Shown here: piece by piece, positions 47,240-59,266 of the stretch
Numbering within the stretch: position 1 is the stretch's first letter
How the letters are laid out: every line of letters starts with the position of its first letter
Assembly (NCBI GenBank): GCA_963822945.1
Contig: CAWGJO010000020.1
Location: forward strand, 608,001 to 672,000
Direction of reading: 5' to 3'
Length of the DNA: 64,000 nt
Origin: an uncultured Gemmatimonadaceae bacterium
GTDB lineage: Bacteria > Gemmatimonadota > Gemmatimonadetes > Gemmatimonadales > Gemmatimonadaceae
Notes under the pieces: model-generated
The model's database searches: none
What the model was told of the DNA's origin: nothing
The model's input: the letters and a program-made list of their open reading frames with translations, nothing else
Made by a program: the position numbers and the translations under genes

Positions 47240-48675
47240 CTAGGCGGCCGACGCCGCGTCGTCCCCCCCAGGTCCTTCACGGCCTGGATCATCTTGACCA
47301 GCGTCTCGCGGGCGTCGCCGTACACCATGCCCGTGTTGTCGGCGTAGAAGAGCGCGTTCTCCACTCCCGCGTAGCCCTTGCCCTTGCCGCGCTTGAGCAC
47401 GTAGACCTGGTTGGCGTAGTCGACGTTCAGAATCGGCATGCCGTAGATCGGTGAGCTCTTGTCGGTGCGCGCCGCCGGGTTCACGACGTCATTGGCGCCG
47501 ATCACCAGCGCCACGTCGGTGCCCTTGAATTCGTCGTTCACCTCGTCCAGTTCGGCGATCATGTCATAGGGCACGCCCGCCTCGGCGAGCAGCACGTCCA
47601 TGTGACCCGGCATACGCCCCGCCACCGGGTGAATGGCGAACTTCACCTCGACGCCGGCCGCCTGCAGCGCCTTCACGAACTCGTACAGCTTCTGCTGCGC
47701 CTGCGCGGCGGCCAGGCCGTAGCCCGGCACGATGATCACCTTGCTGGCGTAACGCATCGTGATCGCGGCATCGCTCGCTTCCACCGGCTTCATCGAGCCG
47801 GCGATCTCGCCCTCCTGCTCGATGCTCACGTCGCCGAAGTTGCTGAACAGGACGTTGGCCACCGAGCGGTTCATGGCCTTGGCCATGAGCAGTGTCAGCA
47901 GCGTACCCGCCGAGCCGACCACCATGCCGGCAATCATCAATGCCGGGTTCTGGAGCACGAATCCGTCCAGGGCCACGGCGAGGCCGGTGAGGGCGTTGTA
48001 CAGCGAGATCACCACCGGCATGTCGGCGCCGCCGATCGGCATCGTCGCCATCACGCCGTAGATCAACGCTATTCCGAAGAACACCGCGATCAGAACCTGC
48101 GGCGGCACGTTGGGCACGCCCACCGCCACCCCGACGCCGATGGCGAGGGTGATGAGCAGAACGAGGGCATTGTAGATGTGCTGGCCGGGCAGGCGCCACG
48201 GTTTGTTGACCCGCCCATCGAGCTTCGCCCACGCCACGAGCGAGCCCGAGAACGACACCGAGCCGATCACCGCACCCACGAGCGTCACCGCCAGGTGGGT
48301 GGCGTTGTCGGCCTTGCCGCCCAGCAGCTCGACGGCGGCGATGGCACCGGCGGCCCCGCCGCCCATGCCGTTGTACAACGCCACCATCTGGGGCATGTCC
48401 GTCAGCGCGACCCGCTTTCCGCCGCGCCATGCCCAGCCGACGCCGAGCAGCAGCGCCACCAGTGTCAGCGTGAGATTCACCGACAGGTGGGCAGCGGCTT
48501 CGGGGGCGATGCCGAACACGTAAAGAAAGCCGGCCAGGATTGCCAGCAACATGCCATAGCCCGCTACGCGAACGCCCGACCGCGCCGTCACCGGCGACGA
48601 CATTCGCTTGAGGCCATAAATGAAGAGGAACGCGGCCACGAAATCGGTGGCCTGGATGATCCAGGATGTGTTCAT
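47240..48675 (-). CDS. pntB: NAD(P) transhydrogenase subunit beta (3' end inferred across a G7 tract)
   Basis: MPQMVA, PIGGADMPVVISL.N, AMNRS, IVPGYG, IHPVAGRMPGHM, GANDVVNPAA. One extra G at 47263-47269 gives a stop at 47240. Confidence 0.92.
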
Positions 48676-48685
48676 CGGTGTGTCC

Positions 48686-49000
48686 TCACTCCTTGGCTTT
48701 CGTGGGACGGCTGGACTTGAACATTTCCAGCATCCGCTCGGTCACCACGTAGCCCCCGGCCACGTTGGCCGCGCCGAGGAACACGCCGACGAACCCGACC
48801 ACCTGCTCGGGCGTCGTACTGGCATTGAGCAGGGCATACATCGCACCCACCACGACGATGCCATGCACGAAGTTGGAGCCCGACATCAGCGGCGTGTGCA
48901 GGATGGCCGGCACACGCCCAATGACTTCATAGCCGGTGAACGCCGCGAGCATGAAGATGTACAGCGCGACGAATCCGACGATTCCCGTTTCTACGGTCAT
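48686..49000 (-). CDS. pntA: NAD(P) transhydrogenase subunit alpha part 2 (membrane)
   Basis: VPAILHTPLMSGSN, NVAGGYVVTERMLEMF. Confidence 0.92.
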   Translation of the reverse strand: MTVETGIVGFVALYIFMLAAFTGYEVIGRVPAILHTPLMSGSNFVHGIVVVGAMYALLNASTTPEQVVGFVGVFLGAANVAGGYVVTERMLEMFKSSRPTKAKE

Positions 49001-49016: not shown

Positions 49017-50144
49017 CTAAGCCGATTCCACGGCCGTGCGGGCCGCGTCGTTCTTGATCTCGCCACCGTGCGTGAGCGCCGTCTTGGCGACGACCTCGTC
49101 CTCCCAGTCGAGCGCGAATCCTCCGTCCTTGACCAGCAGATCGAGAAGGTTCAGCACGTTCTTGGCGTAGAGTTCGCTTGCATGTTCGCCGAGGAGCGAC
49201 GGCACGTTCAGCGGGGCGGCGACGGTCACCTGCCCCACGCGGATGGTCTCGCCGGGCTTGGTGTATTCGCAGTTGCCGCCGCCTTCGGCCGCGAGGTCGA
49301 TGATGACGGCGCCGTTCTTCATGCCGTCAACCTGTGCCTTGCTGATCAGCTTCGGCGCCGGGCGTCCCGGCACGGCCGCGGTGGTGATCACCACGTCGGC
49401 CTGCTGAATGTGCCGCGTCAGCGCCGCCGCCACCTTCTGCTTCTCCTCGGCGGTCAGTTCCCGGGCATAGCCGCCCTCACCGCGCGCGTCGACGCCCGTG
49501 TCGACGAACTTCGCACCCAGCGACGCCGCTTCCTCGCGCGTCTCCGGTCGAACGTCGTATCCCTCGACCACCGCGCCCAACCGCCGCGCCGTGGCAATCG
49601 ACTGCAGGCCCGCCACGCCGAGACCGATCACGAGCACGGTCGCCGGCCGCAGGGCACCGGTGGCCGTCGTCATGCGCGGCAGGATGCGCGGAAGCTCGGT
49701 GCCGGCCAGCAGCACCGCATAGTATCCGGCAAGCGCCGCCTGGCTGGACAGCGCATCCATGGCCTGCGCCCGCGTGATGCGCGGCACCAGCTCCATGGCA
49801 AAGCAGGTGATGCCCCGGTCGCGCAGGAGCTTCACCAGGTCGGGTTCGCGATGCGCATACACGAACGAGATGAGCACGGCGCCCTGCTTCATCGCCTTCA
49901 CGACCTCGAGCGAGGGCGGCTGCACCGCCAGCACGAGATCCGCGTCGCCGACCAGCGCCGGCAGATCCGTGGCGATCGTGACGTTTCGGTAGGCGCTGTC
50001 CGGAAGGCTCACTGCCTCGCCGGCACCCGCCTGCAACCGAACTTCTGCGCCGAGTTTGACCAATTTATCGACAACGGCCGGCACCATGGCTACGCGCCGT
50101 TCACCAGTCCGCGTCTCTTTCAATACCGCGACTTTCAGTGACAT
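49017..50144 (-). CDS. pntA: NAD(P) transhydrogenase subunit alpha part 1 (NAD-binding)
   Basis: ERRVAMVP, PRITRAQAMDALSSQA, GLGVAGLQ, GGYA, DLAAEGGGNC. Confidence 0.93.
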   Translation of the reverse strand: MSLKVAVLKETRTGERRVAMVPAVVDKLVKLGAEVRLQAGAGEAVSLPDSAYRNVTIATDLPALVGDADLVLAVQPPSLEVVKAMKQGAVLISFVYAHREPDLVKLLRDRGITCFAMELVPRITRAQAMDALSSQAALAGYYAVLLAGTELPRILPRMTTATGALRPATVLVIGLGVAGLQSIATARRLGAVVEGYDVRPETREEAASLGAKFVDTGVDARGEGGYARELTAEEKQKVAAALTRHIQQADVVITTAAVPGRPAPKLISKAQVDGMKNGAVIIDLAAEGGGNCEYTKPGETIRVGQVTVAAPLNVPSLLGEHASELYAKNVLNLLDLLVKDGGFALDWEDEVVAKTALTHGGEIKNDAARTAVESA

Positions 50145-50641
50145 CAAACGCTCCGTCAATCCGGTGCTGATGGGCACGACCGGCCCTTCGCCGGCCGCGC
50201 CGCTCGCATCATTTCTTGCGCCTGTAAGACTGGAAGACCCCGACTGCCCACGCCCGTCGGTTGGGCCCCGGACCTGGATCGGCTCCGGACACCGCCGGCC
50301 GTAGCCGGCAACCCGCGCTCGCCATCTCGCATGGCGTACCACCGAAACAACCGGCGGTCGCACGGGCAGGCGCACGAACTATAACATGATGGGACGACGA
50401 ATAGGGAGTTCGCGATCGGGGCACCCGTTGCGCTCGGCCATCGAGCGAAGACACGGTGAAATCGCCGGTCCGAACACGACCGAATCCCTCGGAATCCCGT
50501 CTGGAGCCGCGCCCGCCGTGCTCCCGAAGCCCATCCGGGTGCCGAACTGGCGTGCTCCGCCGGGTCCGCCGAGTTTGCAACGTGGGGACCCGGCGCCGGG
50601 TACCTTTCTCGCACGCTCTCTCATGGGAACCGACGACGGAC

Positions 50642-51229
50642 ATGTCGCAGAGAACCTCCTTCTGGCTCACCCTGGGCACATTCGCCACCACACTCGTCGC
50701 GATCGCCGGATACCACGGTGACGTCGCGGCGGGACACTTCATCCCGCGTGGCCAGATGGCCATCGTCGGCGTCGCGACACTCGTCGGAGCCGTCGCCGTC
50801 GGGGGAACGCTCCTCGCGGCCCTGAAGCGCCCACGCACGCCCACGCGGCCGCCGGTCGCGTATCGCGGGCAGATGGTCGTCAATGCCTCGACCGCCGCCT
50901 TCATCGTCGGGATGCTCGTCTATCTGATCATCTATCCACCGACTCCATGGGTGTTCGACACGACGCTGGCGCTCGCGTTCGTGTTCGGCATCATGCTCGT
51001 GATCCCCGTGGCCCCGGCGGACGCACCTGCAGTCGTCGCCGTGCTCAACGGCTGCGCGGGCCTCGCGGGGTGCGGCGCGGGGTTCGCCGTCGGCAACGGC
51101 ATCACCGTCATGGCCGCCGCCCTCATTGCGGCAGCAGGGTGGATCCTCGCGATCGCCCTGCAGCGGACCATGACCCGGTCACTGACCAGCGCGGTGTTCG
51201 CCGCATTCGACGAACGGCCCGGCGTCTGA
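50642..51229 (+). CDS. Truncated membrane-only paralogue of PntB
   Basis: Collinear by eye with the second half of the local PntB membrane domain: PVAPADAPAVVAVLN vs PIGGADMPVVISLYN; MTRSLTSAVF vs MNRSVANVLF. Stops before domain III. Confidence 0.75.
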   Translation: MSQRTSFWLTLGTFATTLVAIAGYHGDVAAGHFIPRGQMAIVGVATLVGAVAVGGTLLAALKRPRTPTRPPVAYRGQMVVNASTAAFIVGMLVYLIIYPPTPWVFDTTLALAFVFGIMLVIPVAPADAPAVVAVLNGCAGLAGCGAGFAVGNGITVMAAALIAAAGWILAIALQRTMTRSLTSAVFAAFDERPGV

Positions 51230-51306
51230 CACGGTGAAGCAACCGGTCGCGTATTGACCGCAAGCATCGGATAGCCGGCGCGCGCCCGGCGCGTAGCTTC
51301 CCTCGT

Positions 51307-52410
51307 ATGTCGGAACGGACGCATTCGCCCATCACACACGCGAGCACGCTGTCGGCTGCCGTCGCCTGGCGCGCGATCGTCGCGCGCGATGCCCGCTATG
51401 ACGGCCGTTTCGTGTACGGCGTGACGTCCACGGGCATCTTCTGCCGTCCCTCATGCCCGTCGCGCCGTCCGCGGCGCGACCGCGTGCGCGTGTTCGCCGA
51501 CGCGCCGGCCGCCCGGACCGCCGGGTTCCGCCCGTGCAAGCGCTGCCGGCCGGCCTCGGACGCGCCGTCGCGCATCCAGGCCGCGGTCGCGCAGGCCACG
51601 GAGTACCTGCACCGGCACGCCGGGGAACGCGTCACCCTGGCCACCCTTGCGGGCGAGGTCGCCCTCAGCCCGTATCATCTGCAGCGCGCTTTCACGCGGG
51701 CCGTGGGCGTCTCGCCCCGGGAATACCAGGATGCGCTGCGCCAACGCCGCTTCGTGGAGCGGCTCCGCGCCGGAGATACCGTGAGTCGCGCCACCTACGA
51801 AGCAGGCTATGGATCGAGCAGCCGCGTGTACGGCCGCCGCGAAGTTCGCGCTGGATTGACCCCCGCCGTGTACCGGCGGCGGGCAGCCGGAAAGCGCATG
51901 CACTTCACGATCGTTGCCGTGCCCCTCGGGCGCCTGCTCGTGGCCTTCACCGACGACGGCGTGTGCGCCGTGGAACTCGGTGACGACGACGCCACCCTGG
52001 AGCGCACCCTGCGAGCGGACTTCGCGAACGCCACCATCGCCCGTGCGTCCGGCGGCGCCAACGCCTGGGTGCGCGATATCGCCGAACGCGCCCGGGGACG
52101 TCGGCCCTCGGCCTCCGTCCCCGTCCCCCTCGACGTGCAGGGAACGGCCTTCCAGTGGCGGGTCTGGAAGGCGCTCCAGCGCATTCCGTTCGGGCAGACG
52201 CGATCGTACGCCCAGGTGGCGCGCTCGGTCGGCCGCCCGCGCGCCGTGCGGGCGGTGGCCAACGCCTGCGCGCGCAACCCGGTGGCGCTCGTCGTCCCCT
52301 GTCACCGCGTCGTGCGAAGCGACGGTGCCTCCGGCGGCTACCGCTGGGGGGAAGCACGGAAGGAGGAACTGCTGCGGCGCGAGCACGCGGGCGACGAGCG
52401 GCACCGCTGA
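51307..52410 (+). CDS. ada: Bifunctional Ada regulator / O6-methylguanine-DNA methyltransferase
   Basis: GIFCRPSC, FRPCKRC, AraC HTH, GTAFQ, PCHRV. Confidence 0.93.
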   Translation: MSERTHSPITHASTLSAAVAWRAIVARDARYDGRFVYGVTSTGIFCRPSCPSRRPRRDRVRVFADAPAARTAGFRPCKRCRPASDAPSRIQAAVAQATEYLHRHAGERVTLATLAGEVALSPYHLQRAFTRAVGVSPREYQDALRQRRFVERLRAGDTVSRATYEAGYGSSSRVYGRREVRAGLTPAVYRRRAAGKRMHFTIVAVPLGRLLVAFTDDGVCAVELGDDDATLERTLRADFANATIARASGGANAWVRDIAERARGRRPSASVPVPLDVQGTAFQWRVWKALQRIPFGQTRSYAQVARSVGRPRAVRAVANACARNPVALVVPCHRVVRSDGASGGYRWGEARKEELLRREHAGDERHR

Positions 52411-55722: not shown

Positions 55723-58122
55723 TCACTCTCCGTACGGGATCCAGATGTTCTTCACCTGCGTCGCGGCCCGGAGGAACTCGCGCCCCTCACCCTGCGTCCC
55801 GTGCAGCCAGTCACGCTGCCGCCACGAGCACCAGGTGCGTTTCATGTTGGACGCCGAGGCCTGTTCGACCATGCGGACGCCGTCGCGCGAGCCGAAATAC
55901 CACATCGCTTCCACGTCATCGTGCTCGGCGAGCACATTGGCCAGCGCGTCCGTGTCCCCGGTGACGATGTTGACCACGCCGCCGGGCAGATCCGACGTAT
56001 CCAGCACGCCGTAGAAGTCCGTCGCCGAGAGCGGGTGTGCCTGCGACGGAATCATGACCACCGCGTTGCCGCTCCCGATGGCGGGCGCCAGCAGCGATAC
56101 GAAGCCGAGGAGCGGTTGCTCCTCCGGACAGGCGATGCCGATCACACCGATCGGTTCGTGCATGGCCAGAGCGACGCCGCGGATCGGCACGTCGTGCACG
56201 GCCCCGTCGTACTTGTCGGCCCACGCCGCATAGGTGAACAGCCGGGAGATGGCGGCCTGAACCTCGCGCCCGGCGGCGCGGCGGCCGACGCCGGTCTGGG
56301 CGTCGATCCGGGCGGCGAACTCCTGGTCCCGCGCCGAGAGATTCTCGGCGATGTAGTACAGGATCTGGGCGCGCAGATGGCCACTCGCCCTGGCCCACGC
56401 CGGCCACGCCTTGTGGGCCGCTTCCACGGCGTTCCGGATGTCCTTCCGGTTGCCGTCACCCACCTCGCCGAGAAATCGGCCCTTCGGGCCGACGACGGCG
56501 CGCGAGTATCCGCCGTCGGGACGCGCCTGCTTGCCGCCGATGTAGAGTTTGGGCGTCCGGTCGATGGCCGGTCCGCTCCGTCCCTTCACGGTCTTTCCCG
56601 CGCGTTCCGCGGGCTCCGTGGCAAGCGGCTTCGCAGCCGGCCGCACGGCAGCCCCGCGCTCCCAGTCGGCCTTGAGGTACTCCCACATCCCCTCGCGCCC
56701 ACCCTCTCGCCCGAACCCGCTCTCCCGGTAGCCGCCGAAGCCGGCCGACGCATCGAACATGTTGGTGGAATTGATCCACACCACACCGGCTTTGATCTTC
56801 GGCGCGATGTCCAGCGCCAGATTGATGTTCTCCGTCCACACGCTCGCCGCCAGACCGTACGGCGTGTTGTTGGCGAGCGCCACGCTCTCGGCCGGTGTCC
56901 GGAACGTCATCTCCACGAGCACCGGGCCGAAGATCTCCACCTGCGCGATCGTCGAGGCCGGTTCGACGTCCGTGAACAGCGTGGGCGGGTAGAAGTAGCC
57001 ATCGGTCGGGCAGGCCCACGACGGCTGCCACATGGAGGCGCCTTCGGTGACACCCTGGTCCACGAGCTGTTTGATGCGGGCGAGTTGCACGGGCGCCACG
57101 ATTGCTCCCATGTCCACCGCCTTGTCGAGCGGCGAGCCGATTCGCAGCGTCTCCATGCGGGCACGCAGCTTGGCGATCAGGCGATCGGCCACTCCCTCCT
57201 GCACGAGCAGGCGCGAGCCGGCGCAGCACACCTGCCCCTGATTGAACCAGATCGCGTCCACCACGCCCTCGACCACGCTGTCGAGATCGGCGTCCTCGTA
57301 GACGATGAAGGGGCTCTTGCCTCCCAGTTCGAGGCTCAGCTTCTTGCCGCTCCCGGCCGTGGCGCGGCGAATGATGCGTCCGACTTCGGTGGACCCGGTG
57401 AACGCGATCTTGTCCACGTCGTCGTGTTCGACGATCAACCGGCCCGTGTCGCCGTCCCCCGTGACCACGTTGACGACGCCGGCCGGGATTCCGGCACGCT
57501 CGGCGATTTCCGCGAACAGCAGCGCCGTGAGCGGCGTGAACTCCGCGGGCTTCAGCACAACCGTGTTCCCGGCCGCGAGCGCCGGAGCAACCTTCCAGGC
57601 AAGCATCAGGAGCGGGAAGTTCCACGGGATGATCTGACCGACCACGCCCACCGCGCTGTAGCCCGTGAACTCCGTGTCCAGCAGCTGCGCCCAGCCCGCA
57701 TGGTGATAGAAGTGGCGCACCACGAGCGGAATGTCGATGTCGCGGGTCTCGCGGATCGACTTGCCGTTGTTCATGCTCTCCAGCACGGCGAACAGCCGCG
57801 AGTGCTTCTGCACCTCACGGGCCAGCGCGTACAGGAACCGCGCCCGGGCATGACAACCCACCCCCTGCCAGGCGGGCAGCGCCTTTCGCGCTGCCTGCAC
57901 GGCTGCGTCCACCTCCGCTGGTGTGCCCTGCGCCACGCGGGCCAGCACATTGGCCGTCCCGGGATCGATGACGTCGAAACGCTTCGCGGGCTTCGTCCAT
58001 CGGCCACCGATGAAGTGTCCGAACTCGCCGCCGTGGCGCTCGAGCCACTGTTGCGCCTCGGCGCGGCTCTCCGGAGCCGGGCCGTACTCCATCGTTTCGA
58101 AGATTGCGGGAACGCTGGCCAT
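55723..58122 (-). CDS. Two-domain aldehyde dehydrogenase (ALDH16-like)
   Basis: IIPWNFP, AFTGST, LELGGK, GQVCCAG, EIFGPV, then a second degenerate ALDH domain; 799 aa. Confidence 0.9.
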   Translation of the reverse strand: MASVPAIFETMEYGPAPESRAEAQQWLERHGGEFGHFIGGRWTKPAKRFDVIDPGTANVLARVAQGTPAEVDAAVQAARKALPAWQGVGCHARARFLYALAREVQKHSRLFAVLESMNNGKSIRETRDIDIPLVVRHFYHHAGWAQLLDTEFTGYSAVGVVGQIIPWNFPLLMLAWKVAPALAAGNTVVLKPAEFTPLTALLFAEIAERAGIPAGVVNVVTGDGDTGRLIVEHDDVDKIAFTGSTEVGRIIRRATAGSGKKLSLELGGKSPFIVYEDADLDSVVEGVVDAIWFNQGQVCCAGSRLLVQEGVADRLIAKLRARMETLRIGSPLDKAVDMGAIVAPVQLARIKQLVDQGVTEGASMWQPSWACPTDGYFYPPTLFTDVEPASTIAQVEIFGPVLVEMTFRTPAESVALANNTPYGLAASVWTENINLALDIAPKIKAGVVWINSTNMFDASAGFGGYRESGFGREGGREGMWEYLKADWERGAAVRPAAKPLATEPAERAGKTVKGRSGPAIDRTPKLYIGGKQARPDGGYSRAVVGPKGRFLGEVGDGNRKDIRNAVEAAHKAWPAWARASGHLRAQILYYIAENLSARDQEFAARIDAQTGVGRRAAGREVQAAISRLFTYAAWADKYDGAVHDVPIRGVALAMHEPIGVIGIACPEEQPLLGFVSLLAPAIGSGNAVVMIPSQAHPLSATDFYGVLDTSDLPGGVVNIVTGDTDALANVLAEHDDVEAMWYFGSRDGVRMVEQASASNMKRTWCSWRQRDWLHGTQGEGREFLRAATQVKNIWIPYGE

Positions 58123-58195: not shown

Positions 58196-59266
58196 TCAGC
58201 CCATCGGTTGCCGGTAGCCTGCCGCATACCGTCCCGTCAGGAACATCTCCAATTGCCGTTCGATGTCGGTGAGCAGCGAACTGGCGCCGAACCGGAAGAG
58301 GTCGGCACGCAGCCACCGGGTGCCCAACTCCTCCTTCATCAGGTACATGAATTCGAGGGCTTGCTTGGCAGTGCGGATGCCGCCCGCCGGCTTGAAACCC
58401 ACCGCGTAGCCGGTCTGCTCGTGGTACTGACGGATCATCCGGGTCATCACCAGCGCAAAGGGGAGGGTCGCGTTCACACCTTCCTTGCCGGTGGACGTCT
58501 TGATGAAGTCGGCGCCAGCCTGCATGGCGACCATGCTCGCCCGGGCCACGTTGCCGAGCGTCGCCAGTTCGCCGGTGGCGAGGATGGCCTTCATATGTGC
58601 ATCGCCGCAGGCCGCGCGGAAGGCCTTCACTTCGTGATAGAGAGCTTCATAGTTGCCCGTGAGCACGTGCGCGCGGGTAATGACGATGTCGATCTCGCGC
58701 GCGCCGGCCGCAACCGACGCGTGGATCTCCTCCAGGCGCTGCTCGAAGGGATTCAAACCGGCCGGAAACCCGGTCGAGACCGCCGCCACGGGAATGTCGG
58801 TGCCGCGCAGTGCCTCAACCGCCGTCTGCACCAGCGCGTGGTACACGCACACCGCGCCCACCGTGATGTGGAGGTCCTCGACCCCGAGCCCCGCCGCCAC
58901 GTCGTCACGCAGCGGGCGCTGCGCCTTGGCGCACAACCGCCGCACGTTACCGGGCGTGTCGTCGCCGGAGAGGGTCGTCAGGTCGATGAGGGTGATGGCG
59001 CGGAGCAGCCAGGCCGCCTGCCACTCCTTCTTCACGGTGCGGCGCGTAGGAATCGTGGCCGCCCGGCGCTCCACGGCACTCCGGTTCACCCGGATGGCGC
59101 GCACGACGTCGAGATCGAGCGGCGTGCCCGCATTCCGTTCCAGATGGGAGGCCGGCGGCCCGGACCGATCGGCGGTCACCAGCACGGGGCGGGGGCCATG
59201 CCCGGCACTGGCGGCGGCTTTCCGCGTCGCCGGCTCGAGGTTGCGATTCGCAGTCATGGAAGCCAC
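58196..59266 (-). CDS. deoC: Deoxyribose-phosphate aldolase
   Basis: IDLTTLSGDDT, EIDIVI, DFIKTSTGKE, GFKPAGGI, FRFGASSL. Confidence 0.93.
   Translation of the reverse strand: MASMTANRNLEPATRKAAASAGHGPRPVLVTADRSGPPASHLERNAGTPLDLDVVRAIRVNRSAVERRAATIPTRRTVKKEWQAAWLLRAITLIDLTTLSGDDTPGNVRRLCAKAQRPLRDDVAAGLGVEDLHITVGAVCVYHALVQTAVEALRGTDIPVAAVSTGFPAGLNPFEQRLEEIHASVAAGAREIDIVITRAHVLTGNYEALYHEVKAFRAACGDAHMKAILATGELATLGNVARASMVAMQAGADFIKTSTGKEGVNATLPFALVMTRMIRQYHEQTGYAVGFKPAGGIRTAKQALEFMYLMKEELGTRWLRADLFRFGASSLLTDIERQLEMFLTGRYAAGYRQPMG

Follow-up and report, generated by a model that had tools for sequence, protein, structure and literature searches.

A truncated leftover of native PntB retained under selection beside an imported pnt operon in one genus of Gemmatimonadaceae

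Introduction

In a review, domain II of transhydrogenase is described as always accompanied by domain III, and no description of a membrane-only PntB was found among the literature matches listed. The window analyzed here, a stretch of 64,000 nucleotides from an uncultured Gemmatimonadaceae bacterium, contains a PntB-like open reading frame that has no domain III and is divergent from a pnt operon, which raises the questions of where this gene came from and what it is kept for. The original prediction, made from the letters of the DNA, was of a membrane-only paralog of the adjacent pntB that had diverged under selection and might serve as a regulatory pseudo-subunit, an assembly factor, or an uncoupled channel. 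Our analysis points instead to the native NADPH-producing transhydrogenase that the adjacent operon displaced; the genus offers a natural, selected, membrane-only transhydrogenase derivative, against the rule given in the review.

Results

The open reading frame proved intact, with 195 translated codons and no internal stop (Table 1), and its PntB affiliation was confirmed by a Pfam match of residues 1 to 190 to positions 80 to 269 of the 456-position profile PF02233 (96.5 bits against a cutoff of 31.7; E 2e-27). BLASTP aligned it with the adjacent PntB at 47/161 identities (29%; E 7e-15), and this alignment contains the segment pairs that had first suggested the relationship. The match extends from the loop ahead of TM9 to just past the hinge helix, so that TM6-8 and domain III are missing; the absence of the first helices and of the NADP(H) domain, with an end at the hinge, had thus been read correctly. 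Only 77 nt separate the stop from the start of ada at 51307, leaving no room downstream for a remnant of domain III. Instead of the nine TM helices of PntB (TM6-TM14), the protein has six and the hinge; domain III is absent from the chain in all 11 truncated copies found in the genus, which end at or before the hinge; and the gene shares no operon with a cognate pntA1 or pntA2, being divergent from a noncognate pnt operon.

Table 1. Features of the remnant locus, in window coordinates
Feature	Position	Strand	Basis
Truncated native pntB remnant, 195 aa, TM9-TM14 and hinge helix	50642..51229	+	Translation, Pfam, structure model, tree
TACCTT, -10-like hexamer about 30-40 nt ahead of the start, common to several orthologs; possibly the remnant's own promoter	50601..50606	+	Alignment
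Loop 9-10 (aa 24-39), presumed outer side; Y24, R36, and M39 invariant in 20/20 truncated rows	50711..50758	+	Alignment
TM11, outer loop, and TM12 start (aa 80-107; AFxxGMxxYLxxYPPTxWVF), where the remnant is under strongest constraint	50879..50962	+	Site rates; synonymous sites vary
D127 (T. thermophilus D202, E. coli D213); varies within the remnant family	51020..51022	+	Alignment, PMC5742237
N136 (T. thermophilus N211, probably E. coli N222 by offset)	51047..51049	+	Alignment
R179 (T. thermophilus R254, E. coli R265); missing where orthologs end after TM14	51176..51178	+	Alignment
Conserved promoter-like element 5' of ada, present also where the remnant is absent	51254..51299	+	Alignment
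ada, synteny marker after native pntB in sister genera	51307..52410	+	Pfam, synteny
pntA1 (domain I), imported operon; divergent from the remnant	49017..50144	-	Pfam, synteny
pntA2, imported operon; TM3 His kept (NFVHG)	48686..49000	-	Pfam, alignment
Imported pntB; stop missed in the assembly, one base short in a G run at 47263-47269	47240..48675	-	Comparison with relatives

The remnant and the adjacent PntB are the two PNTB matches in this genome, and a search of the ESM Atlas with the remnant returned PNTB clusters alone. With the NCBIfam model PRK09444, the remnant scored 46.7 bits against a cutoff of 689, which the adjacent full-length PntB also failed to reach (373 bits). All of the best 120 of 306 longer homologs were annotated as PNTB; there was one PntA2-PntB fusion and no fusion to an unrelated domain. 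An AlphaFold2 model built from a 78-row alignment shows six helices and a short C-terminal helix (pLDDT 89.8) and superposes on residues 81-263 of Thermus thermophilus PntB with a Z score of 20.2 and an rmsd of 2.7 A over 183 residues, a likeness that is partly inherited from the native PntBs among the alignment rows. This model replaced an earlier one from 15 truncated rows, which had a pLDDT of 59 and no Foldseek match at E<=0.001. A GGAG-like sequence precedes the start in the alignment of several orthologs. A sigma-70 scan over 50100-51350 reported no site and left the TACCTT hexamer unflagged, and an Rfam search over 49900-51400 gave no match. A longer form of the gene starting at 50456 was rejected, as the upstream frame was not conserved.

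Homologs of similar length beside pnt operons do exist, at the same site within the genus. The 17 genomes sampled, the genus being known here from assembled genomes alone, comprise 11 with an intact truncated copy upstream of ada (G000, G001, G003, G006, G008, G009, G011, G012, G013, G014, and G015), one with a full-length, channel-degenerate copy (G005), two that have lost the gene and have nothing at the site (G010 and G016), one with a single pnt operon of a different, native type (G007), and two without a pntB match (G002 and G004, 93% and 95% complete). All 11 truncated frames are open. In 10 of the 11, pntA1 lies back to back with the truncated copy on the same contig, the G013 contig ending in the pntA1 leader. 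Remnant and ada match share a strand in 10 of the 11 loci, with the remnant lying upstream by 56-116 nt. The N-terminal boundary is the loop preceding TM9 in eight copies, and the other three retain a TM8-like segment; at the C terminus, the last element is the hinge in seven copies and TM14 in four. The protein collection contained 14 further proteins of 178-202 aa, some of them identical to the genus loci. Beyond the genus, the 22 multimatch genomes among the matches listed, a listing that stopped short of 233 weaker matches, yielded no fragment of this kind; from their ranges, the matches in these genomes were judged to be full-length copies, contig-edge pieces, or frameshift-split genes. 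The TM11-12 motif pattern, itself derived from the remnant family, occurred in 7 of 401 genomes of the order, all in the source genus. No conserved neighbor of the remnant was found besides the imported operon and ada.

Phylogeny did not bear out the supposed duplication of the adjacent pntB. In a tree of the shared region (58 rows, with 17 of 75 left out), 17 truncated rows and the full-length G005 copy form one clade (SH-aLRT 99), the sister of which is the native PntB of G007 (SH-aLRT 86), and the adjacent PntB is placed among mostly proteobacterial sequences. Forcing the remnant and the adjacent PntB together cost 164 log units and was rejected by the AU test (p-AU 1.1e-10). The remnant is not a recent duplicate of its neighbor but descends from the native PntB lineage. 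The adjacent PntB is 70-73% identical to proteins from Dyella, Nevskia, and Steroidobacteraceae and 42-49% identical to PntBs of the family, and the named records that are 89-99% identical to it belong to Gemmatimonadaceae; judged by these likenesses, the neighboring operon is a proteobacterial-type import.

Gene order leads to the same lineage. In six of seven sister-genus loci, selected as best hits, native pntB lies immediately 5' of ada; in a broader set, 2 of 20 loci have this order. In two sister-genus loci, the whole dnk-gly-dinB ... ada-duf72-aldh block matches the window. An ABC permease gene sits between the remnant and ada in G008 and likewise beside the native pntB in G007, where the comparison spans two contigs without overlap. 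The remnant still occupies the ancestral site before ada and is what is left of the native pntB of Gemmatimonadaceae. In a tree of five neighbor genes, the 14 import-bearing genomes form a clade that excludes G007 (100/99), and G010 pairs with G016 (90/89); by these placements, one import and one complete loss would suffice for the pattern in the genus. The differing ends of the remnants suggest several trimming events, with the backbone of the tree unresolved.

The remnant is under purifying selection. Nei-Gojobori estimates of dN/dS, for which duf72 was left out and the G009 and G015 rows lacked about 15-20 N-terminal residues, were 0.19-0.33 for seven pairs among G000, G012, G006, G001, and G003, and no upper bootstrap limit exceeded 0.49; given the kinship of these genomes, the pairs do not count as independent. 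For the same pairs, the adjacent pnt genes gave 0.02-0.12 and ada gave 0.15-0.22, so that the value for the remnant is 2 to 15 times that of the adjacent pnt genes. Eight deeper pairs gave 0.45-0.82, with one interval including 1 and dS probably saturated. In neutral simulations from the remnant sequence, dN/dS was 1.1-1.4 and 1-26% of pairs stayed stop-free. GC3 of the remnant is 0.86, similar to that of neighboring genes. The close-clade values and the simulation together indicate real but relaxed purifying selection, and the selection suspected in the original prediction was thereby upheld. The gene could not be classed as a pseudogene or decaying duplicate, since the 11 frames are intact, close-clade dN/dS lies far from the neutral range, and the gene did not arise from the adjacent one.

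Constraint has moved within the protein. The Asp, Asn, and Arg said to be retained do occur in the window, where D127, N136, and R179 align with T. thermophilus D202, N211, and R254; D202 and R254 are equated with Escherichia coli D213 and R265 in PMC5742237, and N222 as the counterpart of N136 would follow from the same +11 offset. Their retention did not hold for the family: among 20 truncated rows (those of G009 and G015 again without about 15-20 N-terminal residues), the Asp is found in 12, the Asn in 16, and the Arg in 11, with six rows gapped at the last position, whereas all three are invariant in working PntBs (17/17 native and 25/25 imported-type rows). The GGADMP and MNRS motifs are eroded in the truncated rows, as are the TM10 Glu and S137, and the TM14 Asp, present in 17/17 native PntBs, is found in 0/20. 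The position of E. coli His91 is Leu in all 17 truncated rows that have a residue there and was already Leu in G007. Invariant in 20/20, by contrast with these eroding coupling residues, are Y24, R36, M39, A86, F87, G90, Y94, L95, Y98, P99, T101, W103, and F105.

Site rates of the remnant and native PntB, computed with the same N-terminally short G009 and G015 rows, are uncorrelated in rank (rho -0.10), compared with 0.69-0.70 between native and imported-type PntBs; for the 11 syntenic copies, a sample found by Pfam and hence independent of the motif, against 30 close natives, rho was -0.14. Residues 80-107, a window chosen after the data were viewed, rank 1 (slowest) of 163 in the remnant, 163 in native PntB, and 162 in imported-type PntB. 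In TM11, conservation has shifted around the helix by about 125-140 degrees, onto positions that are hypervariable in working enzymes. Fourfold sites in this block are nearly as variable as elsewhere (0.44 versus 0.50-0.53), and the constraint therefore acts on the protein. TM9, TM10, TM13, TM14, and the hinge have relative rates of 0.8-1.3 in the remnant versus 0.2-0.4 in native PntB. Constraint is thus inverted: the TM11/outer-loop surface is the slowest part of the remnant and the fastest of native PntB, and the coupling residues erode.

The locus in G005 is of an intermediate kind. At the same site, its contig C248 (locus L047, 3123-4828) carries a pntA2-like gene of 98 aa together with a full-length pntB-like gene of 470 aa, the sole copy at the remnant site with domain III and the sole survivor of the cognate pntA2 (PntA2'). 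This PntB' is 67% identical to that of G007 in domain III and 52% in TM9-14; it lacks the equivalents of N222 and R265, and PntA2' lacks the TM3 Thr/Asn, yet PntB' already has the TM11-12 motif. The new constraint therefore predates trimming, which fits an old side role of the subunit that was kept while the catalytic parts were shed. G005 contains two copies of the imported operon, on C339 (L046) and C248, that are 91% identical over 2770 nt within one bin, and C248 may come from a cobinned relative; such an origin would not alter this argument.

Discussion

A well-supported history begins with a genus ancestor whose native operon, pntA1-pntA2-pntB, lay upstream of ada. Back to back with this operon, one of proteobacterial type was inserted, and the native pntA1 was lost. 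The native pntA2 and pntB shed their coupling residues and were trimmed, more than once, to TM(8)9-14. After xenologous displacement, a catalytically dead homolog can be retained under selection as a pseudoenzyme once a foreign gene has taken over catalysis. What distinguishes the present case is a staged record of displacement within one genus, comprising the intact native operon, a dead full-length copy, several truncations, and loss; no prokaryotic example of a selected remnant after xenologous displacement was found among the literature matches listed.

Compared with PntB (PF02233; T. thermophilus 4o9u_B and 4o9p_D; E. coli 9l76), the remnant shares TM9-TM14 and the hinge helix, both in sequence and in predicted fold, but differs in the absence of TM6-8, domain III, and a cognate PntA1, in its eroded coupling motifs, and in its inverted conservation. 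The native PntB of the G007/P0021 type resembles an ancestor more closely: it is 46-47% identical to the remnant, occupies the equivalent place with respect to ada, and has a precursor of the TM11-12 motif already, but it is full length and has GGADMP, LNSYSG, the TM14 Asp, and MNRS intact in a complete operon. The gene is well supported as a selected, repurposed leftover, confined so far to one genus, and the inverted conservation names specific residues to mutate, by which the question of what the remnant of a displaced enzyme is kept for becomes testable.

We give slightly better than even chances to the remnant being an exapted membrane docking surface and not a channel. It would be translated as a six-helix inner membrane protein, production being suggested by the TACCTT and GGAG-like sequences, would be inserted with the ancestral topology, and would mediate neither hydride transfer nor proton conduction. 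The selected role would be carried by one TM11 face plus the two neighboring outer loops. These would most likely serve, close to the periplasmic side, as a docking site for a lipid or for another protein of the membrane or the periplasm, by means of a surface absent from the imported enzyme. The topology of PntB would place loops 9-10 and 11-12 on the periplasmic side, with which the Lys/Arg distribution of the orthologs agrees; the conserved TM11 face is presumably lipid exposed, as judged from its variability in working PntBs and not from coordinates. The terms TM11 and TM12 were not found in PMC9529548. Against docking stand dN/dS values that exceed those of the adjacent pnt genes and rise further in the deeper pairs, the loss of the gene from G010 and G016, end points that vary among species as in slow decay, and a neighborhood in which no gene but ada and the imported operon is conserved beside the remnant. 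It is unlikely, if still worth considering, that the remnant serves some bioenergetic complex, perhaps the imported transhydrogenase, as an accessory peculiar to this lineage, docking via a surface evolved on the old PntB; for the enzyme, an accessory bound through its outer face is conceivable. If this were true, a natural domain-II-only protein would embody a moonlighting role of transhydrogenase that split off once horizontal transfer supplied a new catalyst.

Slow decay, in which residual selection merely keeps a harmless, well-folded membrane peptide until deletion, would account for the remnant being the fastest-evolving protein at the locus in most pairs, for the high deep-pair dN/dS, and for the variable ends, the loss in two genomes, and the restriction to one genus. 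We consider it improbable: the gene is intact in 12 of 14 import-bearing genomes; A86, F87, G90, Y94, L95, Y98, T101, and W103 are invariant in all 20 rows over a tree length of 11, with AT-rich codons among the invariant positions despite the high GC3; and few simulated neutral pairs remain stop-free. No less doubtful is a repacked, self-associating protein in which, PntA2 being lost, two or three copies would pack via TM11-12 into a homo-oligomer, possibly forming a small pore or transporter. The single continuous conserved helical face would suit such an interface, and an internal repeat of PntB relating the TM8-9 and TM12-13 junctions (a weak second HMMER domain) could allow the missing hairpin to be supplied in trans; however, the full-length G005 copy carries the same motif with PntA2' still present, and no conserved polar residue lines the old channel.

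According to PMC5742237, the transhydrogenase channel is formed by TM3, 4, 9, 10, 13, and 14, with the dimer contact at TM2 and Asp202 at TM13's cytosolic end, and PMC13635403 names His91 and Asn222 as pore residues. That the channel helices and those facing PntA2 are under no special constraint argues against both an uncoupled channel and a PntB mimic. A regulatory pseudo-subunit or assembly factor, as in the original prediction, here taken to replace PntB on the imported PntA2 and to tune transhydrogenase activity, accordingly rates as a poor prospect. All 12 copies adjoin the imported operon or its leader, and the fold of four of the six channel helices (as assigned in PMC5742237) is kept, but the adjacency is explained by descent, and TM9, TM10, TM13, TM14, and the hinge include the very contacts of TM3/4 and domain III. 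Moreover, no residue of the imported PntB is common to G010 and G016 and absent from eight remnant carriers, although with one loss event this is a weak test. An uncoupled proton channel or leak seems very improbable even though N136 is kept in 16 of 20 truncated rows and the imported PntA2 could supply the TM3 His, for there is no His at the His91 position, the TM14 Asp, TM10 Glu, and S137 are gone or eroded, and only four of the six channel helices exist. We attach the lowest probability of all to a frame kept open merely to shield ada transcription from polarity or because it overlies a DNA or RNA element. Its closeness to ada on the same strand and the TAT codon at Y98 in 10 of 11 copies could be cited in favor; but a conserved element of its own lies upstream of ada whether the locus is native, carries the remnant, or is free of it, the conserved block varies at synonymous sites, none of the antisense frames stays open throughout the copies, and Rfam gave no match.

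Several further observations concern the surroundings. The stop of the imported pntB is missed in the window (47240-47272, minus strand) and the frame reads on to 745 aa, while the gene in six relatives ends 4-7 codons past the conserved KDLGG/KELGG end; the window is one base short in a run of seven G, probably through a homopolymer assembly error. The pntA1 leader (50142-50386, minus strand) is a noncoding stretch of about 230 nt that follows an extended -10-like TGnTATAGT. Every one of the 14 import-bearing genomes conserves it, those without the remnant included, and it had no match outside the genus among 162 loci searched. Its multihairpin consensus, with two-sided changes in 4 of 56 pairs and no Rfam match, makes it a candidate cis-regulatory RNA. 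The element upstream of ada reads TTG..GCAA-N5-CGGATAGC with a TAG(C/T)TT hexamer and is conserved in the source genus and sister genera; it resembles an Ada-box promoter. At the loci 55723-58122 and 58196-59266, both on the minus strand, a 799-aa aldehyde dehydrogenase with two ALDH stretches is encoded downstream of deoC.

Elsewhere in Gemmatimonadaceae, several other genera, g90 and g64 among them, have two full-length pntB genes, with a tandem pair in G109:C4 (321964-325128; L164). The channel-degenerate PntA2'/PntB' pair of G005 C248 has a well-kept NADP(H) domain and no cognate pntA1 and might work with the imported PntA1 as an uncoupled partner or else act as an NADP(H) sensor. In the native transhydrogenase of G007 and sister genera (L048 1174-2855, L156, L157, L158, L160, L162, L051, and L060), both known gating positions lack His: the TM3 sequence of PntA2 is NAISG, and the PntB of G007 and of its nearest relatives has Leu, Phe, or Met in TM9. 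This enzyme does have an invariant Asp in TM14, which is a possible alternative proton carrier.
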